Positions 46,550-63,130 of a stretch of DNA of 64,000 nucleotides are shown in pieces. Position 1 is the first letter of the stretch; every line of letters starts with the position of its first letter. Made by a program: the position numbers and the translations under genes. Source of the stretch: a virus; IMG/VR virus record IMGVR_UViG_3300045988_149625. One strand, written 5' to 3'. A model generated the notes under the pieces. The model saw nothing but the letters and a program-made list of their open reading frames with translations. It was not told where the DNA came from and made no database searches.

Positions 46550-46593
46550 CAGATTTGGCTTGTATGCGTTCCAAAGTGAAGATAGGTATAAAT
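46550..46593 (+). repeat. Conserved 44-bp intergenic element, copy 1 (cagatttggctt-N8-N12-ataggtataaat)
   Basis: Same-length, ~75% identical copy at 57109-57152. Both copies follow a terminator and precede a consensus promoter. Confidence 0.5.
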
Positions 46594-46623
46594 TTACCTA
46601 ACCTATAAATTTAAAAATAGTGC

Positions 46624-46652
46624 TTGACAATGCTTAGAAAATGTGGTACTAT
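46624..46652 (+). promoter_or_regulatory. Consensus sigma-A promoter (TTGACA-17-TACTAT)
   Basis: ttgacaatgcttagaaaatgtggtactat. Confidence 0.55.
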
Positions 46653-46679
46653 ATAGGTAACAAAGAAAAGGAGGTTACT

Positions 46680-47033
46680 ATGAAACGATATCATAAAGAT
46701 GTATATTTTCCAGTATTTTTAGACTTAGACGGCTTTTTGAAGAATTTGCCACAACTGACGTATTCAAAACACTTTTTGCAGCAGCTTGGCAAAAAGGGAA
46801 GAACAAAAATTCCCCAAATAAATGCAGCTATTGCAAGGACAAGGGGTAATATTTTCGAGGTTTATGTTGAAAATGGTGTAATTGAAAAAGCCTGCATAAG
46901 CATAAGAGTTGATAGATTTAAGTCTTATGTCTATGTTATTGCAAAGAGCGGATATGTCGTTACTGCATGGGTAACACGTAAAGAGGGAATACTTTGCAAT
47001 ATGAATAAGTCTTTATATGAAAGGGGCAATTAA
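46680..47033 (+). CDS. Hypothetical protein
   Basis: Starts MKRYHKDVYF after an AAGGAGG RBS. The ORF-track start at 46641 lies within the promoter. Confidence 0.35.
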   Translation: MKRYHKDVYFPVFLDLDGFLKNLPQLTYSKHFLQQLGKKGRTKIPQINAAIARTRGNIFEVYVENGVIEKACISIRVDRFKSYVYVIAKSGYVVTAWVTRKEGILCNMNKSLYERGN

Positions 47034-47247
47034 AATGTTTATATTTCGTTGTAATAATACGATTTTTATGAATGTTATAAGTGTATCTTTAGGTATGGAT
47101 GCTAACCATACACCTGTATTAAAGGTAAAAACATCAGATTTAGATACAGCCATAATTAAAACATATAAAACATCAGAAGATGCTTTGGCAGCCTTTAATA
47201 GAATTTGCAATGAGCTTAAAATTGGCAAGACTTATATTGAGGTGTAA
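47017..47247 (+). CDS. Hypothetical protein
   Basis: 76-aa ORF. Confidence 0.25.
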   Translation: MKGAIKMFIFRCNNTIFMNVISVSLGMDANHTPVLKVKTSDLDTAIIKTYKTSEDALAAFNRICNELKIGKTYIEV

Positions 47248-47350
47248 TAATGGACGAAAGTTACGTATTTTGCTTTTTCACGATTTGTTCCTTCACTTTT
47301 GCGTGTGTCACATTGTATTTTATGTATTTAATGGAAAGAGGTGATAAATA

Positions 47351-47545
47351 ATGTATACTCCAACTAAAACGCCAAACACTTTAAGTGTTAAAATTGTGCA
47401 AGATTTTTTTAAAGATATTAACAAGAAGGGTGCGCCTGTTTTAGTAGTGATTGATAATAAAGAATATGTCTTAGAATGTTTATTAGAGCAAAAAGACAGT
47501 GTTTGTTTATATGCAGGTGAAGTTTATACACGTAAGGGGGTATAA
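47351..47545 (+). CDS. Hypothetical protein
   Basis: 64-aa ORF with an RBS. Confidence 0.25.
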   Translation: MYTPTKTPNTLSVKIVQDFFKDINKKGAPVLVVIDNKEYVLECLLEQKDSVCLYAGEVYTRKGV

Positions 47546-47547
47546 AT

Positions 47548-47994
47548 ATGGAAACTTTAAAACTTTTTAATACTATTATGGACGAATTTTCTAATAAAAC
47601 TGAACAAGAAAATTTCTTTAAAAAATTTGAGGAAGTTGTTGGAAAGCCTGTTATGCAAAAAGCTTTTTATCCAATGTATACATATCTTTACGGCGAGCAT
47701 TTTAATAGTGAGCTTGCAACAGAGGCTGTACAGGGTATGGATAATATAAACGGCACTAAAGGGGAAACTTATACATTCACTGCTTGTGTAGATGCAGCTG
47801 AAAAACTTGGTTTAAGTTGGGAAAAATATAATAAATTTGATTGGTACTTTACACTTAATATGATTGCAAGCGATTATGCAGGTATTGTAGAGGATGTAAA
47901 ATTTGTTGAAATTGCAAAAGCTTGGCTTGAAGATAAAGACGTTCCAGAAGGGAAAGCTTTACGATATTGGTGGAAGGTGGTGAAGTGTAATTGA
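47548..47994 (+). CDS. Hypothetical protein
   Basis: 148-aa ORF. Confidence 0.3.
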   Translation: METLKLFNTIMDEFSNKTEQENFFKKFEEVVGKPVMQKAFYPMYTYLYGEHFNSELATEAVQGMDNINGTKGETYTFTACVDAAEKLGLSWEKYNKFDWYFTLNMIASDYAGIVEDVKFVEIAKAWLEDKDVPEGKALRYWWKVVKCN

Positions 47995-48284
47995 TTACAG
48001 AGTTTCCTTATGATAATACCTTCGATACTATATTTAATAAGATTAAGAATGGGGATACTATTCTAATTACAGATATTGAGGGCAAATTATTTTGGAACAC
48101 AGTACAAGCACATGCACTAGAAAAAGGAGATTCCTATTTAAACGCAAGTAAAGCTAGTTATACTATTTTTGTTTATAAAGACATTACTTGGGGCGCAACT
48201 TTAAATAAGAATGATTCTACAATTAAATTATGCAAGGTGCGGAAAGTAGAATATGTTTATCATGCTTGGGAAGAAGTAGAATAA
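47991..48284 (+). CDS. Hypothetical protein
   Basis: 97-aa ORF, coupled. Confidence 0.3.
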   Translation: MITEFPYDNTFDTIFNKIKNGDTILITDIEGKLFWNTVQAHALEKGDSYLNASKASYTIFVYKDITWGATLNKNDSTIKLCKVRKVEYVYHAWEEVE

Positions 48285-48289
48285 TAAAG

Positions 48290-48324
48290 CGCACTTGACA
48301 TGGTGCGCTTTTTCTGTTATAATA
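48290..48324 (+). promoter_or_regulatory. Overlapping terminator hairpin and consensus promoter (agcgcac-TTGACAtg-gtgcgct-ttttt ... TATAAT)
   Basis: A 7-bp inverted repeat flanks the -35 box and is followed by a T-run. The -10 tataat is at 48319-48324. Confidence 0.5.
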
Positions 48325-48345
48325 AGCGCATAAGGAGGTATTCAT

Positions 48346-48846
48346 ATGAGCGCAGAAGATTATATGTTTGAAAGTGGCGATTGGGCTGATTGGTCATATA
48401 CATATAGCGGATACCATAAGCGCAGACGTTATAAACAATATGATAGTTTTGATTACAGTTTTTACAACAAGTCTTATACTACCAGTGAGCGTAGAGCTTA
48501 TGGGTATAGAAAAGTACGTGCTTTTTATAGGGAGTTTTTAAAAGCACTCCCCTTAGCATTAAAGGAAAAAGCTTTTTATAAGCTTTTTAAACGTAATTTG
48601 CAGTATAGGGCACTTTCCTATACGGAAGATGTGCCAGAACAGTATGAAAATGTTTTTACACGTCTGGTAATTAATTTGGCAACTACAGAAGATTTAACAA
48701 ATGCTTGGTTAAATATGAATGTCTATGAATATTTTAGGAAACTTCCTAGAGTGTTGCAGGAAAGTTTGTTAAAAGGTTTTGTAGATAATTACAACTTAGA
48801 TTTAAGCAAGCTGTCGCATATAAAGGAATATAATATTAATGCTTGA
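48346..48846 (+). CDS. Hypothetical protein
   Basis: 166-aa ORF with an AGGAGG RBS. Confidence 0.35.
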   Translation: MSAEDYMFESGDWADWSYTYSGYHKRRRYKQYDSFDYSFYNKSYTTSERRAYGYRKVRAFYREFLKALPLALKEKAFYKLFKRNLQYRALSYTEDVPEQYENVFTRLVINLATTEDLTNAWLNMNVYEYFRKLPRVLQESLLKGFVDNYNLDLSKLSHIKEYNINA

Positions 48847-48898
48847 CATTCTGTGAGGATTGCGTTATACTTAATATATCAAAGAAAGGGGCAATAAC

Positions 48899-49084
48899 AT
48901 GATTACTGTAAAAGTAACAACTACTAAACAACTATATTCCTTAATTAACTGTTTATTCGAGCTACATAGGAATGAGCTTGAAACGGAGGAAAAGAAGCAG
49001 CTAACGGCTGTGACACTACTCCCATACAATCAATCTATCTATATGCCTGTAGAGCTTTATTTGAAGATAAGGGGGATATTATGA
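48899..49084 (+). CDS. Hypothetical protein
   Basis: 61-aa ORF downstream of promoter TTGACA(48843)-TATACT. Confidence 0.25.
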   Translation: MITVKVTTTKQLYSLINCLFELHRNELETEEKKQLTAVTLLPYNQSIYMPVELYLKIRGIL

Positions 49085-49566
49085 TTTATCTTGTAGCCGA
49101 CACACACTTCAACCATGATATGATGATTGAGAGTGGTTTGCGCCCAAAAGAGTATGAACGAAAGCTTATTAGAAATTGGAATAAGCAGGTAAAAGATGAA
49201 GATATTGTCATTCTCTTAGGGGATATTTCTTGGCGAAATGATTATAGTGTTCTTGAAAAATTGCATGGAAGAAAGATTCTTGTAAGAGGTAATCATGATA
49301 AACATTCCTGCGAGGCTTTTATGAAAGTCTTTGACTTTGCGTGTGATTCGTTTACAATGGACTACAAGGGAATTAATATCATTTTTACGCATAAACCATT
49401 AAAGCGTTTTTCACAAGATGTAAATATTCATGGACATTTACATGATAAACCTGCTTTAAGAGATAAAAGACACATTCTTATTTCCCTGGAAAAAATGGGA
49501 TACTGTGTGTTCCCTTTAAAGGGAATTATTAAGAAGTGGAAAAAGCTTAATATGGAGGGATGCTAA
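49081..49566 (+). CDS. Calcineurin-like metallophosphoesterase
   Basis: VADTHFNHD, LGDISW, GNHDK. Confidence 0.6.
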   Translation: MIYLVADTHFNHDMMIESGLRPKEYERKLIRNWNKQVKDEDIVILLGDISWRNDYSVLEKLHGRKILVRGNHDKHSCEAFMKVFDFACDSFTMDYKGINIIFTHKPLKRFSQDVNIHGHLHDKPALRDKRHILISLEKMGYCVFPLKGIIKKWKKLNMEGC

Positions 49567-50295
49567 TTGATTTATATTACAGGTGATATTCACCAAAATT
49601 TTGATACTTGGAAGTTTGACGGAATTGATTTTAAATCAGAAGATTTCCTAATTATATGCGGAGATTTTGGTTGGGTATGGGCACATTCTTCTTTAAAGAA
49701 GCAAGTCTTAGATGAGAAGAAAAGACTACGTGCTTTTGTTCAAAAGCTGAAATGTACAGTGCTTTTCTGTGACGGAAACCACGAAAACTTTGCAAGATTG
49801 AATGATTATAAAGAATTTCCAGTTACAAAGCGTTGGGGTGGTAAGGTACAAAAACTATGTAATAAATGTTATCATTTAGTACGTGGTGAAAGCTTCCTCA
49901 TTGACGGCAAAAAATTCCTTGCTTTAGGTGGAGCGGAGTCACATGATAAATTTCTTAGAACGCCAAATTTATCATGGTGGGAACAAGAAACGATTGAGGA
50001 TGCAGAAGTTGAAAACGCTATAAAAAATTCTGACAATGTAGATTGTGTTATAACACATTGTTGTCCTACATCTATTCTTACAGATTTATATGCAGCAAGG
50101 TGTATTGACAGTGTGCAGCCTACACTTTCCACGGAACAATTAGAAAAGTTGTATAAACATTTATGTACTAAAAATCATAAATTTAAATGGTTCTTTGGAC
50201 ATTATCATTTTGATAGGAATTTTACAAAGGGAGCAGGAGATTTCTATTTACTGTATGATGCAATTTATTGTTTAGATACAGACAGCCATTTTTAA
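49567..50295 (+). CDS. Calcineurin-like metallophosphoesterase (second, tandem)
   Basis: TGDIHQN, CGDFGW, GNHENF. Confidence 0.6.
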   Translation: MIYITGDIHQNFDTWKFDGIDFKSEDFLIICGDFGWVWAHSSLKKQVLDEKKRLRAFVQKLKCTVLFCDGNHENFARLNDYKEFPVTKRWGGKVQKLCNKCYHLVRGESFLIDGKKFLALGGAESHDKFLRTPNLSWWEQETIEDAEVENAIKNSDNVDCVITHCCPTSILTDLYAARCIDSVQPTLSTEQLEKLYKHLCTKNHKFKWFFGHYHFDRNFTKGAGDFYLLYDAIYCLDTDSHF

Positions 50296-50353
50296 TTGAC
50301 AATCCCCCTTTGACGTGTTAGACTGATAAGGGGAATTTTTATAGGAGGTTAGA

Positions 50354-50539
50354 ATGAATTACGTTATCTTTATTTTAATTCTATGTATGGCAGCTATTGT
50401 TATTCTTACATTTAAAGCGCACCTTTTTATAAGCGGCGTTTTTGCAGCAATATGTTTGTATCGAATAATTTTTGAAGCTTTTTCAAAAATAAGTGTTGAC
50501 AAACAGTTTGTAAGATGCTATAATAAACACATCAAATGA
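50354..50539 (+). CDS. Small membrane protein
   Basis: 61 aa with two hydrophobic helices. Confidence 0.3.
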   Translation: MNYVIFILILCMAAIVILTFKAHLFISGVFAAICLYRIIFEAFSKISVDKQFVRCYNKHIK

Positions 50540-50557
50540 AAGCGAGGTAATTTAACA

Positions 50558-51025
50558 ATGAGAGCAGACACATTTATTATTGTAGATATTACTTTTAACG
50601 GAGCGCATGAAAGCCTTGACCTGCTTGATTATCTTGATTGGGATGAGTTGAAAGTAGACTTGAAACACATCTTTAATGTTAAGAATGTAGACGGAGTTGA
50701 AGGAGTTATTACAAAGACTTCCTTCGGCGATATGGGTGGTAATGTAACTCTTGAAAACGCTATGAACTTCTTGGAATATGCTTATGATAATTATGATACA
50801 GACCTTATCGACGCATTATTTTATGCGACACCTTATAACTTCCTTTGTTGGAGCTGCAATGACTTAGATTACGAGGTAAGACATTGCAAGTTTTATGGCA
50901 AAGATTTAATCTCTTATGTTTACGATGATGAAGCAAGAGTAAGTAGTAGCTTGCGTAATAAGGTGTACAATGAAATTGCTGAAAACGTAGAGGAAACGCC
51001 TTGGGGGTACATTGATATTGAATAA
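50558..51025 (+). CDS. Hypothetical acidic protein
   Basis: 155-aa ORF after promoter TTGACA(50496)-TATAAT. Confidence 0.35.
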   Translation: MRADTFIIVDITFNGAHESLDLLDYLDWDELKVDLKHIFNVKNVDGVEGVITKTSFGDMGGNVTLENAMNFLEYAYDNYDTDLIDALFYATPYNFLCWSCNDLDYEVRHCKFYGKDLISYVYDDEARVSSSLRNKVYNEIAENVEETPWGYIDIE

Positions 51026-51178
51026 ATTATTGTTGGCTATATACTTTGTGTTTATTTTATTGACTTCCCAAATCTCTCTGTGGATGATTTACCACGGAGA
51101 GTATTTGGTAGGAGCATTTTATATACCTTTTATCCTTTTCGGTATTTATGATTTTGTAGAAGAATTGGGGGAATTAAA

Positions 51179-51418
51179 TTGAAAAACGACGTTAAAGAGA
51201 AAGCATTTTTGAAACTTCATCATAGCTTGCTTGCTTTAGAACGTGCTTACCAGGTGCGCAGGAACTATAAAGCAGCTGGAAAGACTGATACACCCATGTA
51301 TAGAGGAAATGAAGCAGCAATCTCCAAAAGACTTATTGAAATTAATTGTTTAATGGAACTTTTTGATTTAAACCTTAAAAATCATTTGGAGTTGTTATAC
51401 GATATGTACAATGATTAG
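51179..51418 (+). CDS. Hypothetical protein
   Basis: 79-aa ORF. Confidence 0.3.
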   Translation: MKNDVKEKAFLKLHHSLLALERAYQVRRNYKAAGKTDTPMYRGNEAAISKRLIEINCLMELFDLNLKNHLELLYDMYND

Positions 51419-51561
51419 AACTTATGCGGTAATTATTTTACCGCATTTTTTCTTGCAAATTTATAAAAAAGTGCTTGACAGTATGCAAAAACTATGGTAT
51501 TATATAGTCAAGGTAGTTAAAGGAAATAAACGTGCTACCAATTACATAAGGAGGCTATTAA

Positions 51562-51789
51562 ATGAAAACGAAGCAGAACAAAAAGCACATTGTAAACGTG
51601 CAGAGTGAAAGACAGATGATTCCAATTAAATCTAAAATTGAGAACGAATTGCACAGTTATGTACTAATAGATAAAAGCAATGCAATTATTGTAAGAGGAC
51701 GTGAGGACAAAATAGAATACACTATTATTGATAGCGGAAGAATTGCTTACACACAATCAAGATATAGAGAAGTATGGGATAATGAATGA
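51562..51789 (+). CDS. Small protein, KKHIV-family paralogue A
   Basis: N-terminus MKTKQNKKHIV. It is a paralogue of the ORF at 51877. Promoter TTGACA 51475. Confidence 0.35.
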   Translation: MKTKQNKKHIVNVQSERQMIPIKSKIENELHSYVLIDKSNAIIVRGREDKIEYTIIDSGRIAYTQSRYREVWDNE

Positions 51790-51876
51790 ACTTTTATCGG
51801 TACTACCGCTTCGGCGGTGGTACTCATTAAGAGCTTATTAAACTCTTAAACTTAATAATTAGGAGGCGCAAAACAA

Positions 51877-52089
51877 ATGAAAAGACGACAAACTAAAAAG
51901 CACATTGTAGAACCAGAAAAAATAGGCTACAAAAAACAAAGTAGCAGCAGCGGCTATATTATCAAAAAGTACACACGCATGTATAACTGCTATCGAGGGG
52001 ATTATACAGTAATAGTTAGTAACTACGCTACACTTAATGTCCTGCATTTATACGGCAATCATGCAGATGTACATTTATACCGCTATTAA
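51877..52089 (+). CDS. Small protein, KKHIV-family paralogue B
   Basis: N-terminus MKRRQTKKHIV. Confidence 0.35.
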   Translation: MKRRQTKKHIVEPEKIGYKKQSSSSGYIIKKYTRMYNCYRGDYTVIVSNYATLNVLHLYGNHADVHLYRY

Positions 52090-52109
52090 AGGAGGGGAGG
52101 CTATAAGAA

Positions 52110-52277
52110 ATGAAAGTAGTTTTAATGAAGGGTAATAGAGCTGTAATAAGTTATAAAGTATCTATGCTAAAGTCTATTAAATTTGATAATGATAACTTAA
52201 TGTACATAGTGGAATTTAATGACGGCAGGAAACACCTTATTTCCGCATATAACCATTATTTTGATTTTGTGGATTGA
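52110..52277 (+). CDS. Hypothetical small protein (56 aa, not in ORF track)
   Basis: atgaaagtagtt...tga with a GGAGG RBS. Confidence 0.25.
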   Translation: MKVVLMKGNRAVISYKVSMLKSIKFDNDNLMYIVEFNDGRKHLISAYNHYFDFVD

Positions 52278-52333
52278 CAAGCAGCGAAAAGTATTGTATA
52301 ATCATTGTATAATCATTTTAGGAGGTATGAAAC

Positions 52334-52597
52334 ATGGCAAGACCAATTAACAGTAAGAACAAAACACAAGGAAAGAAAATCTTTTTAACCCTGGCTGACG
52401 GCTCTAATTTATGGCAAGTTAGCATGACTTATACAGGAGGACACTTCTGTGTAACACACTACTTTGACGGCTTTCCAGATAAGCAGGAACGTTTGAAGCA
52501 AGCAGAAGCTTTAAAGCTTTTGCAAGACTTTTCAGATTTTGGAATTAAGGATATTCCTACACTGAAAAATTTCTTCAAAGTACGTGAAAAATGCTAA
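52334..52597 (+). CDS. Hypothetical protein
   Basis: 87-aa ORF after promoter TTGACA(52274)-TATAAT and an AGGAGG RBS. Confidence 0.35.
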   Translation: MARPINSKNKTQGKKIFLTLADGSNLWQVSMTYTGGHFCVTHYFDGFPDKQERLKQAEALKLLQDFSDFGIKDIPTLKNFFKVREKC

Positions 52598-53027
52598 TTG
52601 TGTTTTTGGGGGCGCATTGAAATTTTGAAAAAAAAAATTGCTAGAATCATAAATAAGTCATTGACAAGTGTGTCAATTACTGTTATAATATAGTCAAGTT
52701 AAGGGAATAAACTGAATACAGAGGAGGAAACAACGATGTTGCAATAAATTAAAAATAATGTTTATAATGCGGAAATAGTAGTAAGCGACGGCGAAAATCG
52801 CTACGCAGTATTCGAGCCAGATTGGAACGGCGAATATTGGGAAGCAATACTTTGCACGGAAAGCGGCAACATTGTCAAAGGTAAAACTGTAAGATTGTTC
52901 CCAGTGCAGGAGTACAATGAAGAACATGATGTATGGGAAATAGTTGGTTATGAAGTTAGATAATGCCTAGCTATAAACCACCACCACCACAGCGCAAGCA
53001 GTGCTATTACGAAAGGAGAGAGAAAAC

Positions 53028-53249
53028 ATGAAATATTATTATATTGAACGTATCAACACACAGGACGGCAGCCGTAATGGGTTCTATATCCAAAAGGCAG
53101 CTAATCTAGAAAAAGTCCTTTTTGCCTTTGACGAGGGCGAAAGCGACGGCGGCTTATACGCACCGCATATTGCCGAAATCACTGAAGCAGAATTTAATAA
53201 TTTTCCGCATTTTATTCCCCAAAATTGGGTATATGGAATGGAGAACTGA
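53028..53249 (+). CDS. Hypothetical protein
   Basis: Starts MKYYYIERINTQDG. The start was trimmed from ORF 53001. Confidence 0.3.
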   Translation: MKYYYIERINTQDGSRNGFYIQKAANLEKVLFAFDEGESDGGLYAPHIAEITEAEFNNFPHFIPQNWVYGMEN

Positions 53250-53346
53250 TATTTTATATAAAAAGTGCTTGACTTATTCATGGAAGTATGCTACAATATA
53301 ATCAAGGTTAGAGATAACCTACAATAAAGAAAAGGGGTAATTTAAC

Positions 53347-53898
53347 ATGAAAAACGATTACAAGAAAATTCAAGAGAAAATTGAGAAGGCTGTTGTAAAG
53401 CATCTTGATAGCGTAGTGACAAACACTGTTGAGCGCAATTCAATCTTATACAGTGATTATAATGAGTATGTACTTATGACCGCTTTTAACCACCAGGAAT
53501 ATTTCATTCCGAAAGATGAAGTGGTAGATTCAACAGTAATTGCTTATGGACAGAAGGACATTGATTCTATGGTCGGCTTGACTGATAGGGTTATGAAGCA
53601 AGCAACGTGTGTATTGAAATACTTAGGTGTATATAAAGGCTACAAAAAAGAATACGTTCTGTTTGAAGGCGAAAATGATAATGGTTCTTACATGGTAGCT
53701 ATTGACAAGAAAAACATTGCAGCTATTAAATATGATACAGTTTATGGCAGCGGTTCTAAACAGCCTGCATTATTTTATAATGAAGGTATTCCAGTGCTTT
53801 TGCAAGCTCCGTGTGTTTTGTCAAAAGAGAACTTAGAGGATATTAATGAAGATTTAAAGCATCTTAGAGCTATTAAACATTTCAAAATTAAACTGTAA
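53347..53898 (+). CDS. Hypothetical protein
   Basis: 183-aa ORF after the promoter at 53268. Confidence 0.35.
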   Translation: MKNDYKKIQEKIEKAVVKHLDSVVTNTVERNSILYSDYNEYVLMTAFNHQEYFIPKDEVVDSTVIAYGQKDIDSMVGLTDRVMKQATCVLKYLGVYKGYKKEYVLFEGENDNGSYMVAIDKKNIAAIKYDTVYGSGSKQPALFYNEGIPVLLQAPCVLSKENLEDINEDLKHLRAIKHFKIKL

Positions 53899-54040
53899 TA
53901 TTATTGGAGAGTAGTATATACTACTCTCTTTTCTTTTTGGGGCGATATTTTCAGAATATTAAATCACGAAAAAGTAGTTGACAGTGCTCTTATAGCATGG
54001 TATAATATAACCAACAAAGGGGCAAGGGGGTAAATTAGAA

Positions 54041-54283
54041 ATGAAAACTTTTAAATTAAACAATCGTAGGCCTTTGGCAACGCTTTCCTTATCTGCATTT
54101 TATGCTTTAGGAATCTTTGACACAAATGATGTACAGTGTGACGAAGTATTAGTTGCATTTTATAATGATGAAGAACGTGGGAAGCTGACATGGTGTAAGC
54201 TTTACGAAAATGCGGAAGGTGATGTCTTTTTTAAAAAATTCGGAAAAAGATATTACTTAAAAGATTTTTTAAAAACACCTTGA
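54041..54283 (+). CDS. Hypothetical protein
   Basis: 80-aa ORF after the promoter at 53978. Confidence 0.3.
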   Translation: MKTFKLNNRRPLATLSLSAFYALGIFDTNDVQCDEVLVAFYNDEERGKLTWCKLYENAEGDVFFKKFGKRYYLKDFLKTP

Positions 54284-54340
54284 CAGTTATCAAAAACTAT
54301 GCTATAATGAATACAACAAATGAAAGTGAGGTACTTAAAC

Positions 54341-54697
54341 ATGAATGAAAAAGAGATTTTAAAGATTTTGCAAGAAACACAAGATTTTGATTATGAAAAT
54401 CTTGTAAAAGTATGGAACTCATATTGTGAGGAAAGAGGTTATCTTGAAAACAAAATCTATAAGAACACTGTAGAAAATCTTGTAGCTTTGCTGCCCGAAA
54501 ATCCGTTAGATGCGTTCTTAATGGGGCAATATGTAGGCGATACATATTTTCAAACTGATATGTGGTTGGCTGTTGACGAAAATAACAATGTATTCTCATT
54601 AACAGATGATATGTTGCTGGATAGTGCAATAAATATTTATAATTTGGCAATCTATATTGCTAATTTTAATGCGGATAAACAGAGAGAGAAATTTTAG
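54341..54697 (+). CDS. Hypothetical protein
   Basis: Starts MNEKEILK. Trimmed from ORF 54320 to lie downstream of the promoter at 54280. Confidence 0.3.
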   Translation: MNEKEILKILQETQDFDYENLVKVWNSYCEERGYLENKIYKNTVENLVALLPENPLDAFLMGQYVGDTYFQTDMWLAVDENNNVFSLTDDMLLDSAINIYNLAIYIANFNADKQREKF

Positions 54698-54723
54698 ACG
54701 AATTATTTTAAGGAGGCTGTATT

Positions 54724-55158
54724 ATGTGGTTTGAAGTAATTGTGAAAGATGCTGAAAAGGAAATTAAGCTTTCCTTGCCGTGTGATGAGCAGGAATTAAA
54801 AGACAGCTATACTATTGTAAGCTGTGAAAATAGCTGGGATTATGAGAATGCGGATTTGACTTTGAAAGAGCTGAATAATCTTGCGCAAGATTTGCAAGAT
54901 ATTGAGGATAACGGCGATGAAGATTGGCTTGAAGCTTATATTGAAGCTACTGGCTGTGATTTAAATATTGCCGTTGATAAATATGATACATCGACTTTTT
55001 ATCATGATATGAGCTTGGTAGACGTTGCATATGATATTGTAGAAGAGTGTTACAACCTGCCAGAGAACTTAGAGCGTTATTTTGATTATGAAGCTTTTGC
55101 AAGAGATTTGGAGATTGAAGGTTATACAGAAACATACTATGGAACTATTTTAGTTTAA
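54724..55158 (+). CDS. Hypothetical acidic protein
   Basis: 144 aa, Asp/Glu-rich. Confidence 0.3.
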   Translation: MWFEVIVKDAEKEIKLSLPCDEQELKDSYTIVSCENSWDYENADLTLKELNNLAQDLQDIEDNGDEDWLEAYIEATGCDLNIAVDKYDTSTFYHDMSLVDVAYDIVEECYNLPENLERYFDYEAFARDLEIEGYTETYYGTILV

Positions 55159-55290
55159 TAACTTGTGTATATTTGCAGGGTACAAATTTTGTGCCTTGCA
55201 GAAGTTATATAAATTATTTATGAAAAACACTTGACAGTGTGTTGTTTATATGGTAATATATAACTAACGAAAGGTAAGGAGGTAATAATC

Positions 55291-55677
55291 ATGTTATTCG
55301 ATTTTTATTATGGTGAAGCAGAAAAAATGTCACCTACTGTTTATGAAGGTTTACCTATTTACAGTGAATCTGACTTAATTTCCCTCATTAGAGAGAAGTG
55401 CGATGATGATTTGGCAGAAGCTGTACAGCGTTATGTAGACTCTTTGAAGGCACAAGCAGCACCTGCACCGCAACAAAAAGACAGTGATGAGGACGCTTAT
55501 TTGGCAATGTTGGAAAGTCGCTGCACACAATTACAAGATGTAGAAGAGGAAATTAGAGATATAGAAGATATTCTCTTTGACCAACTTTATAATCAAAAAC
55601 GTACTAATAGAAAAGCTTTAGAAAAAGCTTGCGATAGCCTGGGCGACTTGCGGGAAAGTATTCACGAAAGTTTATAA
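55291..55677 (+). CDS. Hypothetical acidic protein
   Basis: 128-aa ORF after the promoter at 55231. Confidence 0.3.
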   Translation: MLFDFYYGEAEKMSPTVYEGLPIYSESDLISLIREKCDDDLAEAVQRYVDSLKAQAAPAPQQKDSDEDAYLAMLESRCTQLQDVEEEIRDIEDILFDQLYNQKRTNRKALEKACDSLGDLRESIHESL

Positions 55678-55747
55678 AAAAAATAGTTGACAAACAATTC
55701 ATTGTATAGTAAAATATAAACAACGAAAGACAAGGAGGACAATAAAC

Positions 55748-56029
55748 ATGACAATTTTTGAAGAAAGATTAATGGGTTTTGTGCTTGAAGGTGTTTCCTT
55801 TGAAGATTTCCCGCTTAGCGATATTAAGGTAATTTGTACCGATGTTTATGGAAATCGTACAATCGTGCTTGTTGGCGATTATGGTAAATCTACATTTGCT
55901 TGCAAGCCTGCTTTTTCGGACATATGGTTAATTTCGTATGACTGTATGGAAGGTGAAACAGAAAATTATGTAGAAGCTGTTCTTCACAGGATTTTGGCTA
56001 CACACGGAAAAACTTTTAAATATCTGTAA
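55748..56029 (+). CDS. Hypothetical protein
   Basis: 93-aa ORF after the promoter at 55685. Confidence 0.3.
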   Translation: MTIFEERLMGFVLEGVSFEDFPLSDIKVICTDVYGNRTIVLVGDYGKSTFACKPAFSDIWLISYDCMEGETENYVEAVLHRILATHGKTFKYL

Positions 56030-56097
56030 AAAAGTGCTTGACAACTTGTTGGCTATATGTTATTATATAGCCAACAAGATAAAAGGGGGTACTAAAC

Positions 56098-56391
56098 ATG
56101 TACACAAGAAGAATAATTATAGTCGACAACGGATTTGCCCATGCACTTATGGGCAAGGATATTGACAAAGTTGTTGCAGGCTTGCAGGAGGCTGCAAAAC
56201 AAATCGGCTTTGCAGCAAGCTTTGATGCAAGCTTTGCAAAGGTCAATTTCTGGGGGCAACACTACTCTAAAGAGCGTCAAGTGCTTTATCCCTTTGACGT
56301 TAGATTTTTCAATGGTGTTGAGAATATCCGTATCTATGGAAAAAGCAATGAAAAAAACATCATTGAAGAAGTAAAAATTATAACTTTTTAG
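56098..56391 (+). CDS. Hypothetical protein
   Basis: 97-aa ORF after the promoter at 56037. Confidence 0.3.
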   Translation: MYTRRIIIVDNGFAHALMGKDIDKVVAGLQEAAKQIGFAASFDASFAKVNFWGQHYSKERQVLYPFDVRFFNGVENIRIYGKSNEKNIIEEVKIITF

Positions 56392-56445
56392 TTGACATTG
56401 CCTAAAAAGTATGATATTATAGATACAACAAAGGGAGGTAATAAA

Positions 56446-56736
56446 ATGAAAATTTTCGATTGGCAAGATATTCCGATGATTGGTAAGAACGTATATGACG
56501 TGTTTGATGAGCTTTTTTACCGCTCCGAAAAAGCAGGTATGGAAACACAAGATAACAACGTCATTATGGACGTTGCAATTTTAAATACATACCTTTGGAA
56601 TTGTCTTTACACTGAAGCTCCAAAGGATAAATTGGTAGACTTCCAGATTGACTTTTTTGACGGCGAACAAGGTGTTATCCTTTATGGAAAATGTCATTAT
56701 GTTGGCGGCAAGATTGAATCGGTAAAAATTGGATAA
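56446..56736 (+). CDS. Hypothetical protein
   Basis: Starts MKIFDWQD after the promoter at 56392. Trimmed from ORF 56392. Confidence 0.3.
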   Translation: MKIFDWQDIPMIGKNVYDVFDELFYRSEKAGMETQDNNVIMDVAILNTYLWNCLYTEAPKDKLVDFQIDFFDGEQGVILYGKCHYVGGKIESVKIG

Positions 56737-56806
56737 AAAAGTGCTTGACAATTAATTAAGCATGTGTTATAATATGTACAACAAAAGAAATTGGAGGTAA
56801 TTTAAC

Positions 56807-57049
56807 ATGATTAAAGATTTTAATTACAAAGGTGCTGCAAAGTTGGCGGTATGCGAATTTCTTGGCAATGACATTAACGGCAATGGTCGTTACAGAGTTG
56901 TTGTTATCATTGATAACAAGGTGTACACGGCAAGCGGTAAAGGTTATTACCGCAGTTATGAAACATCTAACGGCGATACCTTGCGTGATGTAAAAGTTGC
57001 AATCCGCCGCATGAAGGGCGGCAATTATCGCCTGGACGATTTAGAATAA
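56807..57049 (+). CDS. Hypothetical protein
   Basis: 80-aa ORF after the promoter at 56745. Confidence 0.3.
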   Translation: MIKDFNYKGAAKLAVCEFLGNDINGNGRYRVVVIIDNKVYTASGKGYYRSYETSNGDTLRDVKVAIRRMKGGNYRLDDLE

Positions 57050-57062
57050 AATTTTGAACTCC

Positions 57063-57088
57063 CCGTTATGGGGAGTTTTCTTTTTGTT
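57063..57088 (+). terminator. Rho-independent terminator
   Basis: aactcccc gtta tggggagtt followed by ttctttttg. Confidence 0.6.
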
Positions 57089-57108
57089 AAAGATATTGCC
57101 AGCGCGCC

Positions 57109-57152
57109 CAGATTTGGCTTATAAGCGTCTGAAATGTAAAATAGGTATAAAT
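57109..57152 (+). repeat. Conserved 44-bp intergenic element, copy 2
   Basis: cagatttggcttataagcgtctgaaatgtaaaataggtataaat. See copy 1 at 46550. Confidence 0.5.
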
Positions 57153-57316
57153 ATATGCGTAAACGAAAAAAGCTGCTTAGAACGCAAATATGGACGTGTG
57201 ACAAGGTTTTCAATTTTTTTAAAAAATTTGGGGAAAAGTAGTTGACAACTTATGTATGTTATGGTACTATATACATGTAGCAAGGATAGAGCTACAAACA
57301 AAGGAGGTAACAATCA

Positions 57317-57553
57317 ATGGAACAAAATGTAAAAATCTTTATGCAAGATAATTGCACAAAAGCAGAAGCTGAACACTATATCAAGAATGGCAGCGAAGTA
57401 GTCAATGTTGCCGATTGGGAACAGTATGCAAAAGATAATGACGTGCGCAATGAGGATGGCGAATACATCACGCTTGATGATTTGCGTGGGGAAAGAGATA
57501 TTTCCTTTGTCCAATTTGAGGGGCAAGAATACATCTTGTTGTATGTTTTGTAA
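57317..57553 (+). CDS. Hypothetical protein
   Basis: 78-aa ORF after the promoter at 57242. Confidence 0.3.
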   Translation: MEQNVKIFMQDNCTKAEAEHYIKNGSEVVNVADWEQYAKDNDVRNEDGEYITLDDLRGERDISFVQFEGQEYILLYVL

Positions 57554-57565
57554 GGAGGTAATAAA

Positions 57566-57856
57566 ATGTTTGTAACGTGTGAAGAACTGAATAAGAGCTT
57601 GACTGTAAGTGTTCGTTTTTTCAAGGAGGGAAATTGGACACCAGATGAGAGTAACGATTTGCTTTCCGACATGTCTACTTATGACGGAGCGGACATTTCC
57701 GCAGAATATTTTGAAAACTTAAAAGTGTTCTTGGAATCTGAAGAAGATACTCTCCAACGTGGCGGCCGCTCTGATGATTGGTTGAGTAACATGACTTTGG
57801 ATGAACTAGGTTTTGAAGGCATTAATATTGATATTGTAGAAGATGAGCTTGAATAA
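57566..57856 (+). CDS. Hypothetical acidic protein
   Basis: 96-aa ORF. Confidence 0.3.
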   Translation: MFVTCEELNKSLTVSVRFFKEGNWTPDESNDLLSDMSTYDGADISAEYFENLKVFLESEEDTLQRGGRSDDWLSNMTLDELGFEGINIDIVEDELE

Positions 57857-57974
57857 TTTTTCCATAAAACTTCAAAAAGTATTTGACAACTTGCAAGGTA
57901 AATGCTATAATATAATCAAAGAGCAGGGGAAAACAAAATTTCCCCTGCCAAACAAAACAAAGGAGTTGTATAAC

Positions 57975-58373
57975 ATGCAAGTAAACATTGTAAAAACTAT
58001 TGAAAAAATTGAAGGTCTGAAATTTCGTTCTACCTGGCAAAAAGCCGTAAAAGAGGACGCAAGCTGGTTGCTTTGGGAACTCATGGACGGACGCTATGAT
58101 GATATTGTAGAGGATGTTATGACTTTTAAAAACATTGAAGGCTTTGAACGTGCTTTGCGTAACGGCGCTGAAACATGGAAAGACTTCTCTGAAGGCGGCA
58201 GCGCACTTATCTCTGATGAAGATATTGCTAAACATTATTGCACGGCAAGCGAATTGAAAAAGACTCACAACGGCGAAAAAGCTCCAAATAGTAGAGAGAA
58301 CTGGCTTGATGTACAAGCAAGAGCATTTTGGCAAGCTGCTTTACTGGTCAAACAAAATTTAGTAACTGAATAA
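57975..58373 (+). CDS. Hypothetical protein
   Basis: Starts MQVNIVKT after the promoter at 57884. Trimmed from ORF 57843. Confidence 0.3.
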   Translation: MQVNIVKTIEKIEGLKFRSTWQKAVKEDASWLLWELMDGRYDDIVEDVMTFKNIEGFERALRNGAETWKDFSEGGSALISDEDIAKHYCTASELKKTHNGEKAPNSRENWLDVQARAFWQAALLVKQNLVTE

Positions 58374-58549
58374 TCCTAAAGCTCCTCCTTGTTGTGGAGC
58401 TTTTCTTTTTCCGGCGGCAGGATGTTCCACGTGAAACATTAGAAAAAACTTGCAATTTTTATAAAAAAGTGTTGACAAAGTGCGGTAAAGCTGCTATAAT
58501 AAAAGCATAGACAAACAGTCTAATAAATAAGGAAAGAGGTAATTTAACA

Positions 58550-58819
58550 ATGAAAAAAGCAACTGAAATTAAGGAACATTATTTTGAGGTGTTGGCTAAA
58601 GCGCAGCCGTTTATGTGGGGCTTGCCTATGGAGATTGAGCAAAATCTCAAAAAATTTAACGAACAATTTGACAAGCTTGTAGAAAAAGAACTTGCTGCTG
58701 AATGTGAAAGATACTATTGGAAAGATTGGGTACAAGAGGCAAAAACGCTCGCATGGGTACTTAATAGGGACGTATACAAAGATTGTGAAAAACTTTATCA
58801 AGAGAGTCACAAGGAATAA
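58550..58819 (+). CDS. Hypothetical protein
   Basis: 89-aa ORF after the promoter at 58472. Confidence 0.3.
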   Translation: MKKATEIKEHYFEVLAKAQPFMWGLPMEIEQNLKKFNEQFDKLVEKELAAECERYYWKDWVQEAKTLAWVLNRDVYKDCEKLYQESHKE

Positions 58820-58943
58820 AAAATAATGCGCTTACTTTTGTAGGCGCATTTTCTTTTTACCGCAATTTTTGAAAAAAGATGTTGACTTTGCGGAAAAGGT
58901 ATGCTATAATATAGTCAAGTTAAAGTTAGGAGGTAACAAAAGC

Positions 58944-59075
58944 ATGGATGATTATGGTTACGATATTCCAGAACGCTTTAAAGCGGCACTAGAGGAATGG
59001 AAAAGAGATAATCCTGATATTCAGAAGCTTTGTGAAGAGCTTGACAACAAAGTTATTATTAAGGAGGTAATGTAA
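58944..59075 (+). CDS. Hypothetical small protein
   Basis: Starts MDDYGYDIPE after the promoter at 58882. Confidence 0.25.
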   Translation: MDDYGYDIPERFKAALEEWKRDNPDIQKLCEELDNKVIIKEVM

Positions 59076-59076
59076 C

Positions 59077-59427
59077 ATGAAAAAAAGATATTATGTACTT
59101 TGGGACAATGACGAATTGCAAGGCTGTACAGCGGAAAGCAAGGCGGCGGCAATGAAAGCAGCAAGAGCTTATAAACGTGCCTGGTGTACCGCTGATAAGC
59201 CGCTGAAGGCGTTTACAGAGGATGAAGCAATAGCTTACAGAAAACATAAATGCTTGCAAAACATAGCGGACATGAAGGAAAGTTGCAGCTATTGGGACGA
59301 TTTGAAAAAGTACGTTCCGCTGTATGAAAGAGGTTACAAAGTGCTTGAAAAGCTTTTAAAGCATAACCATGATATTGACAAGTCTAATCATTTAATTCTT
59401 GCGATATTATCCAACATGCCAAGGTAA
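59077..59427 (+). CDS. Hypothetical protein, paralogue pair member A
   Basis: MKKRYYVLWDNDELQGCTAESKAAAMKAARAYKR is paralogous to 59551. Confidence 0.35.
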   Translation: MKKRYYVLWDNDELQGCTAESKAAAMKAARAYKRAWCTADKPLKAFTEDEAIAYRKHKCLQNIADMKESCSYWDDLKKYVPLYERGYKVLEKLLKHNHDIDKSNHLILAILSNMPR

Positions 59428-59550
59428 ATTGTTCCCTGCTTCGGCAGGGAATTTTTTTTGTAAAAGGGGAAATTTTTTGCGGAAAAATGTTGACAATGTT
59501 ATGCAGGTATGCTATAATATACTTAACTTAAGGAAAGAAGGTAATAAATC

Positions 59551-59751
59551 GTGAAAGATGAATATTCTGTACTTTGGAAAAACGGAGAATTGCAAGCTTG
59601 TTGGGCAGCAAGCAAAGCTGAAGCACTGAAAATAGCAAGAGCTTATAAAAGAGAATATCATATTGAGTATAATTACCCAATAAAAGCTCTTACATACGCT
59701 GAAGCAACGGAGATTATAAGAGCAAGACTGTTAAATGAAGTTGAAAAATAA
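59551..59751 (+). CDS. Hypothetical protein, paralogue pair member B
   Basis: MKDEYSVLWKNGELQACWAASKAEALKIARAYKR. The upstream terminator, spacer and promoter block is also duplicated. Confidence 0.35.
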   Translation: MKDEYSVLWKNGELQACWAASKAEALKIARAYKREYHIEYNYPIKALTYAEATEIIRARLLNEVEK

Positions 59752-59887
59752 AAATTACCTCCCCCGCTACGGCGGGGGATTTTTTGCAAAAAGGGGAAAT
59801 TTTGCGGGAAAAGTGTTGACATATTAGTACAGTAATGTTATAATATACATGTAGTCGATAAGACAACAATAAAAGGAGGCAATAATT

Positions 59888-60193
59888 ATGGATTATTTAG
59901 AAATCGTATCTTATGAACGCCAATCAAAAGATTGTACAAAAGTTATTCTGAAAATAAACCGTGGGAATGACGAGTTGCTTTTCAGAGTTGAGCATCCGTA
60001 TGTCCCCAGTGCCGCAAAATACTACACTTGTTACGTAGAAAATATTGGTTTTGACAAACAAGTCTATGCTATTGGAGAAAAGTATAAAGAGCACTTCTGT
60101 TCTGGCTATATATATAGTGACCAAAACCATAGGATTCTTGCCGATATAGGAAAAGTGGTGAACCCGTTTATAAGAAAAATTCGCCAATTTTAA
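59888..60193 (+). CDS. Hypothetical protein
   Basis: 101-aa ORF after the promoter at 59816. Confidence 0.3.
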   Translation: MDYLEIVSYERQSKDCTKVILKINRGNDELLFRVEHPYVPSAAKYYTCYVENIGFDKQVYAIGEKYKEHFCSGYIYSDQNHRILADIGKVVNPFIRKIRQF

Positions 60194-60259
60194 GATTAAC
60201 GAGTTGACTTTTTCGCCGCAAAGAGGTATAATAGTAATATCAAAGAGGAGGCAAAAATC

Positions 60260-60475: not shown

Positions 60476-60480
60476 TAAAT

Positions 60481-60513
60481 TAGAGGGACGCAAGTTGTCC
60501 CTCTTTTATTTTG
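60481..60513 (+). terminator. Rho-independent terminator
   Basis: gagggac gcaagtt gtccctc followed by ttttatttt. Confidence 0.6.
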
Positions 60514-60589
60514 TAAAGAGTGGGACATAAAAAGTCCCTATAAAGCAGCGTAAAAAAGGGGGAAAATGCGGCCGCCAAAAGGGGTAGTA

Positions 60590-62300
60590 GTAATATAGGT
60601 AATATAGTATAGTATATAGTAATAGGTAGTAAATAACAATATCTAAAGTATTCATCAGTTGTTTGATAACAATTACTTATTAATAATAATTATCCATTAG
60701 TAATTTTTCGCAAAAAACTAGTAAAATGGGCGTACACCTTTCACTGAATATTCGCACAATTTGTAACATTTGTTACACTTTTGTCCTAAATAGGAACAAT
60801 TCCTAAAAAATTTCGCATCTTAAAAGCTAGTAGTTTGGGCGTACACCTTTGGTGTATAATAAAATTTAATAAAAAGCATACATTTATACATCATTTATGC
60901 AGTTTTTGCATAAAAGTGGTATTTTACCCCTAGGAAAAGTAGTATAAATTAGCATATTTATACATTCTCTATGTATAATATACAAGATATGTATATAAAC
61001 TGTATAAATAGAAAATTAGCATACAATATAAGAAAATACCAGGGAAAACGGGTAAAAAGCAAGGAAAATGCGGTATAAAGCAGCTATATAGGTATATAGT
61101 ATAGTAATAGCCTTTATAAGTACAGAAATAACCCTCTTTGGCGGCATATTCATCCCCCCTATATAGTAATACCTATGGAAAATAGAACCTTTTTAGGGCG
61201 CATTTCCTGCCCTCTCATGGGTATGATTTAATCTTCTGAATATTTATCTTATCTATTGACTTATATACTACTGTATAGTATAATAGAAATGAATACTCTT
61301 TTGGGGCGGCGATTTCCCTTCCCTTTAGTAGTATATTCCTATATACTATACCTATTGATAATTCTTCCTATTTAGGGCGGCATCCTTCCTACCCCATGTT
61401 GGTAGGTGTAGCGGCGGTGTAATAGGTAGTTACTATTTAATAGTAGTAGTTACTATATAGGCTCTTAAATAGGAAATATTCCTATTTGGGCGGCGTTCCC
61501 TTTAACTACTCGTTCCTTAATAGGAATAGTTACTATTTAAGAGCCTTTTCTACTTAAAAAATTTTCCTTATTAGGAATAATTCTTAATTAGTACGTACTC
61601 CTTATTAAGACATATTCCTTATTAGTAATGGTTACTACGTACACTTCTTTCCTAAATTTATTTTACTCCTTAATAGGACGAGTTCCTACGTACACTTTAT
61701 TCCTTAGTGATAATAATTCTCATTAGTGGGTACACCTAATGAGAATTATTCCTATTTGTACGGTAGTAGCACGTACACTCTATTCCTTATTGTAACTTAT
61801 TCCTATTTGTTGGTTAGAAGGACGTACACCTCTGTTCCCGCCCTTTTCTACCAGGGCGATACTTAATAGGAATAATTCCTACTATGAATATTATGAATTG
61901 TCTAATTATTAGACAATTCTGTTAATATGAATATTCATATTATTTGAATTGTCTGATTAATATGAATAGTCTGATTATAAGAATAGTCTGAAAAATATGA
62001 GTTGCGGGAAAAGTTAAATAATATGAATTATCTGAATATTTTAATAAGAGGGAAAATTTCGAGGATAAAGAATATTCTGATTATTAATAATCTGAATATT
62101 AAGTAAATGAATAGTCTGATAATTAATAATAGTCTGAAATTTTAAATATTATTGAATAGTCTGAATAATATACTATATTCATAAACATATAAATATTCAG
62201 ACTATTTTATGTCTTAATCTTCAGATTATTTAATTTTCAGACGATTTACGCCTCCTGCTAATTATCTGAAAATTCCAATAACTTGCAACGGTGGTAGCTA
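60590..62300. repeat. Repeat-dense non-coding region with three iteron families and palindromes (candidate origin, partition or packaging region)
   Basis: There is no ORF >60 aa. Motif families are: TATAGTA/ACTATATAG low complexity; five TTT(A)GGGCGGC(R)TTTCC boxes (61134-61500); at least 7 (A/G)CGTACAC(C/T)T boxes (60730-61829); at least 10 (G)AATAGTCTGA(T/A) boxes (61945-62270); and a 25-nt perfect palindrome at 61895-61919. Confidence 0.7.
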
Positions 62301-62517
62301 AAATTTGACTATTTGACTTTTTTATATAATAAATATGCCTCTGACACCGCCGTAAATAGCCCTAGAATTAATTTTAAGCGAAATAGGTATAGTTATATCT
62401 AAAAATGCTAAAATAGCATGACGGGGCGTTTACATCGTTCTAAAGGCTATTCCTGCATTTTTGGCAGGATAAAAATAGCCTGCATATGCTATGCAGGGTA
62501 AAACACTTTCCTTCTAT

Positions 62518-62536
62518 TATATATATATATATATAT
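62518..62536. repeat. (TA)9 microsatellite
   Basis: tatatatatatatatatat. Confidence 0.8.
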
Positions 62537-62735
62537 GCCGTTCCTTTTTCCACGCTTGCAGCAGTATCAGTAGGAAATTGTCAGAAAATTACATCTTTTT
62601 AAATTCCCAAAAAAGTTAAAAAATACTATTGAAAATATCCGCAACATCTGCTATACTATATACAGAGGTTGGGAATGAAAGGAGCTCAACCTAATGACCG
62701 AACCTTGATAATTAAATATCGTATCTTAAAAGCAA

Positions 62736-62800
62736 CCTGCCCACGTGGGCAGGCAGGCAACCGCCGAAGAGGTTGCCGTCGACGTGGTGAAGCGTCGCAA
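62736..62800 (+). other. GC-rich island with stacked palindromes in an AT-rich context
   Basis: cctgcccacgtgggcagg is a perfect 18-nt palindrome. ggcaacc-gccgaagag-ggttgcc is a stem-loop. gacg..cgtc forms a further small stem. Confidence 0.5.
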
Positions 62801-62842
62801 TGAGATTGCGCCGTAGACAATTTATATAGGGAGGTAAAAAAC

Positions 62843-63130
62843 ATGAGATTTTACAAAAATATAACACACGAAGTCGTTAAATTGTCTTTGGACAATTTGA
62901 GAGCGTCCCGTTTTTGGGAGGCGCAGGCAATGGAAGCCTACGAAGCGGATTATAATAACCATTATGGTATTAGTTACGCTAGTAGCAAGGCTGAAGCCTT
63001 TAAAAACGTTGCCTATGGTCAATTTAGAATCAGTCAATTAATGCGTAGTGCCTCAAACACACGCATTAAAAGACTGTATAAACAAGCTTTAATTTTGGAA
63101 GAGGAGGCATGGAGAATTGACAATAGATAA
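62843..63130 (+). CDS. Hypothetical protein
   Basis: 95 aa with a GGGAGG RBS. Confidence 0.35.
   Translation: MRFYKNITHEVVKLSLDNLRASRFWEAQAMEAYEADYNNHYGISYASSKAEAFKNVAYGQFRISQLMRSASNTRIKRLYKQALILEEEAWRIDNR

Follow-up and report, generated by a model that had tools for sequence, protein, structure and literature searches.

A gene-free, repeat-rich region beside the early genes of an abundant gut phage: a possible counterpart of the T5 untranslated repeat regions

The 64,000-nucleotide stretch of viral DNA analysed here (IMG/VR record IMGVR_UViG_3300045988_149625, hereafter the window; positions count from its first nucleotide) is tailed phage DNA of 35% G + C with nearly all of its genes on the + strand. 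It runs from tail genes through a diversity-generating retroelement, a replication module, 7-deazaguanine genes and an RNA ligase gene into many small genes. Near its end lies a gene-free gap of 2,367 bp (60476–62842), bounded by the stop codon of a 71-amino-acid open reading frame (ORF) at 60475 and an ATG at 62843. A first-pass annotation made from the sequence alone had described about 2 kb here as free of credible ORFs and rich in three repeat families, (a), (b) and (c), and had proposed a replication origin, a partition site or a packaging site. The gap is wider than was noted and is indeed free of credible ORFs, the longest having 49 amino acids and no ribosome-binding site. Scans of the gap for tRNA genes and for Rfam families at curated (gathering) thresholds found none.

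Repeats at the end of the early gene module

The region follows a distinctive block of genes. Twenty-five consensus promoters (TTGACA-17-TATAAT) lie at 45.3–60.2 kb (45328–60232), all on the + strand and about one per small gene, whereas the remaining 44 kb of the window has 10. They are of the sigma-A type and many carry an upstream TG. An ArdA gene lies inside this block (54724–55158), and the proteins encoded there are ORFans by comparison with PHROGs. Together, the promoter density, the ArdA gene and the ORFan proteins mark 45.3–60.2 kb as the host-takeover or early module of the phage. The gene-free region starts directly after the terminator of this approximately 15-kb module, a predicted intrinsic terminator on the + strand (60482–60504, with a tail to 60512) whose 9-bp stem, containing five G–C pairs, is followed by TTTTATTTT. 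The hairpin is retained in relatives despite changes in both stem and loop. On the 3′ side, more small + strand genes occupy about 1.6 kb before a long − strand block of DNA-modification genes, so that the region separates the early genes from the gene block that follows, as first described. The order across this boundary is terminator, approximately 1.4 kb of oriented boxes with an invariant promoter, an optional 0.4-kb cassette, and the promoter and leader of the next genes.

All five (a) boxes of the first-pass annotation were found, in the same orientation on the + strand (consensus YTTTDGGGCGGCRwTTCCYTYCC; 61134, 61189, 61296, 61366 and 61480, spanning 61134–61505). Three contain the strict core TTDGGSCGSC (61301, 61372 and 61485), which occurs four times in the window against 0.4 expected, and two are degenerate, reading TTTGGCGGC at 61134 and TTAGGGCGC at 61193. 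A sixth copy had been overlooked: an inverted box on the − strand, read from the sequence as GGGGAAAATGCGGCCGCCAAAAGG (60556–60585), which matches the reverse complement of the third to fifth boxes (a3–a5) and is near-invariant in relatives. Boxes a3, a4 and a5 sit in the loops of inverted repeats, so that three hairpins follow one another, their loops conserved and their stems different. The longest (61459–61546) has 28-nt arms that are 93% complementary and a 32-nt loop with box a5; folded as DNA it reaches −23 kcal/mol (z = −6.9). Two compensatory pairs are seen in this inverted repeat among relatives, and one genome (L132) builds a different stem round the same loop. Between the (a) boxes lies a predicted host-type consensus promoter, TTGACT-17-TATAAT (61256–61284, + strand), whose hexamers are invariant and whose spacer is variable in relatives.

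The (b) core CGTACAC occurs eight times in the window (2.2 expected). Six copies lie in the region, all on the + strand (60731, 60840, 61638, 61689, 61772 and 61823), with related copies at 61727 and 61590, in good agreement with the earlier description of this family. The two upstream copies belong to a pair of 29-bp direct repeats on the + strand (60713–60850) that are 109 bp apart and 86% identical, each ending in TGGGCGTACACCTTT (b′ boxes). These repeats flank the palindromes TGTAAC..GTTACA and TAGGAAcaaTTCCTA, and are kept in relatives except for a deletion in L131. The downstream copies form part of six units of 51 bp (one of 83 bp) on the + strand (61511–61885), each with a TTCCTWWTWRG box and a ACGTACAC box. 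Here YTCCT keeps strictly to a 17-bp lattice, recurring at intervals of 17, 34 and 51 bp; TTCCT is found 15 times against 1.4 expected, with strong strand asymmetry. This 17/51-bp lattice was missed at first pass, as were the hairpins with (a) boxes in their loops, the terminator, and the promoters at 61256 and 62629. The remainder of this core comprises an A/T-rich block of short palindromes (60776–61025; for example TGTATAaTATACA and GTATAAAT..ATTTATAC) and a 21-bp tandem repeat, GGAAAAYGSGGTAWAAAGCA, on the + strand (61043–61082), present in three copies in relative L050. A search for all box families in the rest of the reconstructed genome found none outside the region.

Ten genomes of about 96–104 kb share the layout of a 71-amino-acid gene, a gap of 2.1–2.5 kb and small genes. 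The core (60476–61890) is 83–95% identical between genomes, compared with 67–86% nucleotide identity, or outright replacement, for the neighbouring early genes. Within the region, divergence at box positions is half that of the intervening DNA (0.05 versus 0.098 per site; circular-shift p = 0.004), with a value of 0.059 for the (a) boxes. The palindrome block at 60776–61025 is the most conserved stretch, with a per-site divergence of 0.03–0.07 against a regional mean of 0.088. The repeats are real, confined to one locus and conserved, and they evolve like protein-binding sites, which bears out that part of the first-pass interpretation. Family (c) is missing in three of nine relatives, and Bacillus phage BCD7, the closest cultured relative (TerL 45% and PolA 30% identical), has neither such a gene-free gap nor boxes.

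Downstream of the repeats, a 40-bp block on the + strand, AAAATTTGACTATTTGACTTTTTTATATAATAAATATGCC (62301–62340), is identical in eight of nine genomes and is promoter-like, with a non-canonical 15-nt spacing. It is followed by a strain-variable segment with hairpins (62370–62620) that includes a length-variable (TA)n tract (62518–62536), and then by a predicted + strand promoter with an upstream TG, TTGAAA-17-TATACT (62629–62657), which would serve the next small genes through a leader of about 185 nt (62660–62842, + strand). The leader contains a conserved G + C-rich hairpin, AACCTGCCCACGTGGGCAGG (62735–62758), and matched no Rfam family. The interval 62370–63130 is a hot spot of strain variation among close relatives: the 62370–62620 segment, the (TA)n tract and the first downstream gene (62843–63130) differ or are replaced between them, and several assemblies break at 62388 and 64000.

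A dispensable cassette of CodY-like boxes

Family (c) makes up a separate cassette (61886–62295) of (G)AATAGTCTGAwwATT boxes. With at most one mismatch, AATAGTCTGA occurs 18 times in the window against 5.6 expected, and 11 of these copies lie within 300 bp (61947–62246), eight direct and then three inverted. The looser pattern AATWDTCTGA gives 10 direct copies followed by three inverted ones, matching the initial count of at least 10 and two or three. The 25-nt palindrome reported at 61895–61919 was also confirmed, with perfect 12-nt arms round a central T. The cassette is present in six genomes with 8–13 boxes each, in shuffled positions and orientations. In three of nine relatives (L130, L131 and L144) it is missing and a G + C-rich filler of about 50 bp is found instead, so it is not essential and cannot be an essential origin or packaging element. 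In L132, L142 and L145 the boxes are retained and the spacers replaced, to the point that the L132 spacers can no longer be aligned. That boxes persist while spacers turn over suggests that selection acts on the boxes. None of the genes near the cassette co-varies with its presence.

The full (c) site is a 15-bp near-palindrome, AATwGTC-W-GACwATT, which matches the CodY operator AATTTTCWGAAAATT at 12–14 of 15 positions. Both are 15-nt A/T-rich pseudo-palindromes centred on TCWGA. In CodY–DNA structures the sole base-specific contacts are to the T6-C7/G-A step and, in the minor groove, to A/T at positions 1–3 (PMC10415144), and the (c) site keeps all of these positions. Scored as CodY operators (a 15-nt match with at most five mismatches, the T6-C7/G-A step, and A/T at positions 1–3), the (c) sites qualify. 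At a stricter cut-off of at most three mismatches the cassette has 11 CodY-like sites in 420 bp. The rest of the window, 61 kb once the non-coding region is set aside, has 15, and shuffled versions of the cassette give 0.25. The best match (14/15) is at 62260 and another site lies at 62576. Two features set the boxes apart from known CodY operators: the constant A-G at positions 4–5 is not the CodY optimum, and arrays of 10–30 sites are far larger than chromosomal operators.

Viral contigs were also scanned for paired boxes. Dense arrays of AATAGTCTGACAATT, with 14–16 boxes per 800 bp in both orientations, were found in Bastillevirinae phages of Bacillus, where they fill the first 1.4 kb or so of the direct terminal repeat (DTR), a non-coding stretch, in DIGNKC (L007, 1–1450), SBP8a (L039; DTR annotated as 1–2831), Bastille and many others (further examples in L021 and L004). 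The ends of this repeat have been mapped experimentally (PMC5418689). These arrays resemble that of the gut phage in their 10–11-nt core, the same W degeneracy, the use of both orientations, spacings in multiples of about 9 bp (kept more loosely in the gut phage), and a non-coding position 5′ of small early-type genes. The phages themselves are unrelated to the gut phage; the Bacillus box has a fuller palindrome (GTCTGAC), the (a), (b) and TTCCT modules of the core are absent, and the array lies in a mapped DTR whereas that of the gut phage is known from assemblies alone. Further arrays occur in the unrelated contigs L005/L024, L010 and L031, and the array-bearing lineages have no phage protein in common within the available sequence. 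A full-text search for the box sequence returned irrelevant matches only, and the arrays go unmentioned in papers on Bastillevirinae termini; they are apparently undescribed so far.

Further parallels with CodY come from the way the arrays are built. In L010 and L005, canonical CodY boxes are intermixed with AATAGTCTGA boxes in the same arrays. Centre-to-centre spacings in three lineages fall near multiples of about 9 bp, clearly so in L005 (9/18/27/36/45) and Bastillevirinae (9/17/26/35/44/53) and less tightly in the gut clade, where the peaks are close to 17, 27, 36, 45 and 54. Such a register would correspond to CodY dimers that overlap one another rather than to the helical repeat. There is precedent for host global-regulator operators in virulent phages, with Spo0A boxes in phi29 and Nf (PMC2731898) and CtrA sites in phages of Alphaproteobacteria (PMC9437464). 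The concept is alike, in that phage development is coupled to host physiology; the regulator is a different one, and the sites form clustered arrays at a single locus here rather than lying at individual promoters or ends. One could speculate that the AATAGTCTGA arrays are high-capacity CodY-binding platforms gained independently by unrelated virulent Firmicutes phages, which might either sense the nutrient status of the host and defer or license early development, or, once replicated to hundreds of copies, titrate CodY and so de-repress the amino-acid supply of the host, and that the adjacent core is a T5-type entry or transcription checkpoint in a Gram-positive phage. We regard this wider proposal as doubtful, although worth stating.

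A control region and the alternatives

Taken together, these features lead us to suggest, tentatively, that the region is a DNA-level nucleoprotein control region analogous to the untranslated repeat regions of phage T5, with an optional cassette for a host regulator. It would be single-copy, clade-specific and cis-acting, at the downstream boundary of the early module; this too is put forward with some reserve. One or more early or virion proteins of the phage would coat the core lattice cooperatively, and the resulting complex would decide passage at the boundary, either of transcription leaving the early module or of DNA entering the cell in stages. The optional cassette would recruit a host global regulator, most likely CodY, and thereby make the boundary responsive to the nutritional state of the host.

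In T5, untranslated repeat regions 1–3, with the injection stop signal, lie in the left terminal repeat beside the pre-early genes and have a proposed role in staged DNA entry (Davison, bioRxiv 10.1101/866236). As in the gut phage, a large untranslated stretch lies beside host-takeover genes with host promoters, is better conserved than the neighbouring ORFs, and is made up of nested direct repeats, inverted repeats and palindromes. The spacing is close to five helical turns in both (52 bp in T5, 51 bp here), both have boxes of a host-factor type, and parts are missing in some relatives of each. On the other hand, there is no sequence homology, and the host-factor boxes of T5 are DnaA boxes whereas those seen here are CodY-like. 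A terminal-repeat site and two-step injection are T5 features, while the gut phage region is known from sequence alone, and the gut phage's host appears to be a Gram-positive anaerobe.

Several observations weigh against this interpretation. DnaA boxes (TTWTNCACA) number zero in the region, and the nine in the window are at chance level; likewise, no T5 A1/A2-like protein is recognisable among the early ORFans using PHROGs. Given these two absences, the region is not a member of the T5 repeat-region family, and the likeness is one of design. The adjacent 71-amino-acid protein gave a low-confidence AlphaFold model of three helices (pLDDT 70.6), for which a fold search with a cut-off of E below 5 returned nothing. 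The constant A-G at positions 4–5 of the (c) box may mark a regulator other than CodY, and the internal promoter and hairpins could equally serve an RNA. Finally, all of the relatives compared are close (at least 83% identical), which limits comparative power.

The features of the region would also suit a replication origin, with the boxes as initiator iterons, unwinding at the A/T-rich palindrome block and activation by the internal promoter. Dense direct repeats, a conserved A/T-rich block, a hairpin and a promoter are all present, and a phage with DnaB, a DnaC-like loader, primase and PolA of its own needs a start site. Iteron origins (lambda ori, P1 oriR and RK2 oriV), as well as the centromeres parC and tubC, likewise have direct repeats in one orientation next to an A/T-rich segment. 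Their phasing is about 22 bp, near two helical turns, however, against 17/51 bp here, and the gut phage region has no adjacent initiator or partition gene; the replication genes are 25–40 kb away. The region lacks DnaA boxes, its + strand transcript would be pyrimidine-rich and poorly suited to R-loop formation, and UvsX, UvsY and RusA suggest recombination-driven replication. A more canonical candidate lies about 17 kb downstream on the circular map, at a divergent junction (L155, 9053–9712) where a segment of 82% A/T (74% at 60641–61040 in the gap) lies between two consensus promoters placed back to back. This segment holds a homopurine run and its inverted homopyrimidine copy, with 77-nt arms, and the junction is a plausible candidate for the replication origin or an end region. 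A Rep-iteron origin is disfavoured on three counts: its phasing would be different, no initiator gene is nearby, and the junction offers a better candidate. We consider an origin of any kind in the region unlikely. A centromere-like partition site of a phage-plasmid is far less probable again. Short direct-repeat arrays on a non-helical lattice do resemble centromeres of the ParR/parC or TubR/tubC type. A search on both sides for flanking rep or par genes, which the first-pass annotation had advised, revealed no initiator, par or integrase gene; nor are there par, rep or integrase genes in the reconstructed parts of the genome, which cover all but about 1–2 kb. The phage carries the genes of a virulent type, and the absence of par genes and of plasmid similarity leaves the centromere, like the Rep-iteron origin, unsupported.

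Could the region instead hold or border a DTR, with the boxes acting as terminase or end-binding sites? Host-takeover genes adjoin the genome end in T5, and they do so in T7 and in SPO1-type phages. Arrays of the (c) type sit in the mapped DTR of Bastillevirinae (PMC5418689), and no small-terminase gene is recognisable beside TerL. Streptomyces phage BRock, the closest TerL relative with deposited ends, has an exact 221-bp DTR beside a non-coding stretch of about 870 bp; its TerL is 32% identical, a weak basis for assigning a packaging type, and its layout would place the ends of the gut phage at the divergent junction and not at the gap. TerL itself is about 27 kb from the region in the reconstructed genome, contrary to the expectation for pac or cos sites that the terminase genes adjoin them; contigs run through the region, with assembly breaks scattered round the circle, and the (c) cassette is dispensable. 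A terminus here is in our view unlikely, to about the same degree as an origin. An RNA locus would have the 61256 promoter and read-through from the early module yield a structured RNA, either with C-rich or UUCCU hairpin loops that bind protein or mRNAs or as a long leader for the genes from 62843 onwards. The invariant promoter, the three successive hairpins (conserved loops on different stems, with compensatory pairs) and the strand asymmetry of TTCCT are what such a locus predicts, and the − strand of the a5 hairpin matches the Rfam Enterococcus-1 motif (RF02973), albeit weakly, at 27.9 bits against a gathering score of 71.4. At E-value thresholds, Rfam otherwise gave generic hairpin matches only, and a literature search for the Enterococcus-1 motif found no paper mentioning it. 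Against this, the a3 hairpin cannot form in RNA made from that promoter, since its left arm precedes the predicted start, the long hairpin is followed by a T-run that lacks conservation, the main stems consist of Watson–Crick pairs with no enrichment of wobble pairs, no conserved − strand promoter was found, and the palindromes and box lattice reach well past any predicted transcript. We judge an RNA locus to be quite unlikely. Overall, we infer that the region is neither a plasmid-type origin, nor a centromere, nor a terminase site beside its gene.

The phage, its likely host and its culturable parallels

Assemblies from human and pig gut commonly contain this phage, and one of its tail proteins is indexed in 1,278 blocks of the searched collection. 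Contigs of about 96–104 kb have break points scattered round a circle, indicating a circular assembly of about 99 kb, and the part of this genome beyond the window was pieced together from relatives. The genes are those of a virulent type of phage and include T4-like recombination genes, the replication module encoding an SF2 helicase, a DnaC-like loader, DnaB, primase, PolA, UvsX and a Cas4-type nuclease. A scan of genome contigs found no prophage copy, and the gene-free region has no nucleotide similarity to cultured phages or plasmids. Neighbouring genes used as anchors (the 126-amino-acid protein, ArdA, PAPS reductase and a 290-amino-acid gene) recovered close relatives only, and other phages with a PAPS-reductase gene lack the gene-free region.

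The host looks clostridial, judging from the Shine–Dalgarno sites, the anaerobic NrdD and a methylase gene of one relative that matches a bacterial AlwI-type restriction–modification locus. In that relative (L141, IMGVR_UViG_3300045988_146036) the Dam-type methylase gene (221–1087) is 99% identical to the methylase of an AlwI-type restriction–modification system beside AddAB in a bacterium and to copies in unrelated temperate phages (L148–L150 for these matches). An anti-restriction gene that changed hands recently seems likely, and it gives a clue to a host among the Clostridia. The further contigs reached through this methylase were bacterial or belonged to unrelated phages.

Other parts of the genome have features of their own. 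A second gene-free gap (L155, 3670–7341) is an array of 18–19 tRNA genes, adjoining a gene for a DUF2828/Ro-like 'RNA-binding protein' and an anaerobic ribonucleotide reductase gene. In BRock, tRNA genes and an RNA-binding protein gene are arranged in much the same way; its exact DTR comprises 1–221 and 112303–112523, and by eye TGAATAG/CTATTCA-like motifs seem to recur in the 870 bp or so at its left end (L146, 1–870). In the window, the diversity-generating retroelement (12485–16158) consists of an Mtd-like target protein (12485–14419) followed by a reverse transcriptase (14866–16158). The RNA ligase ORF (43163–45322) is split by a LAGLIDADG homing-endonuclease domain (residues 308–497 or thereabouts) between ligase-like segments, probably an intein. 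Two neighbouring small genes of the early module (59061–59175 and 59535–59649) share about 75% nucleotide identity, which suggests a tandem duplication giving paralogs. A DpdA-like transglycosylase gene (41256–43166) lies with QueC- and QueE-like genes (37265–43166), so the phage DNA probably carries 7-deazaguanine, a modification that could affect protein binding to boxes containing G.

Large, conserved untranslated regions beside host-takeover genes are known from T5, where they are a mechanistic puzzle. The same design may now be recognised in a gut phage that is abundant but uncultivated and infects Gram-positive anaerobes. The box arrays can be tested in culture: CodY itself and codY mutants are already at hand for B. 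thuringiensis and B. cereus, both of which support plaque formation by Bastillevirinae phages. If the predicted role is true, CodY would join Spo0A, CtrA and DnaA among the host master regulators that are wired into virulent phages.

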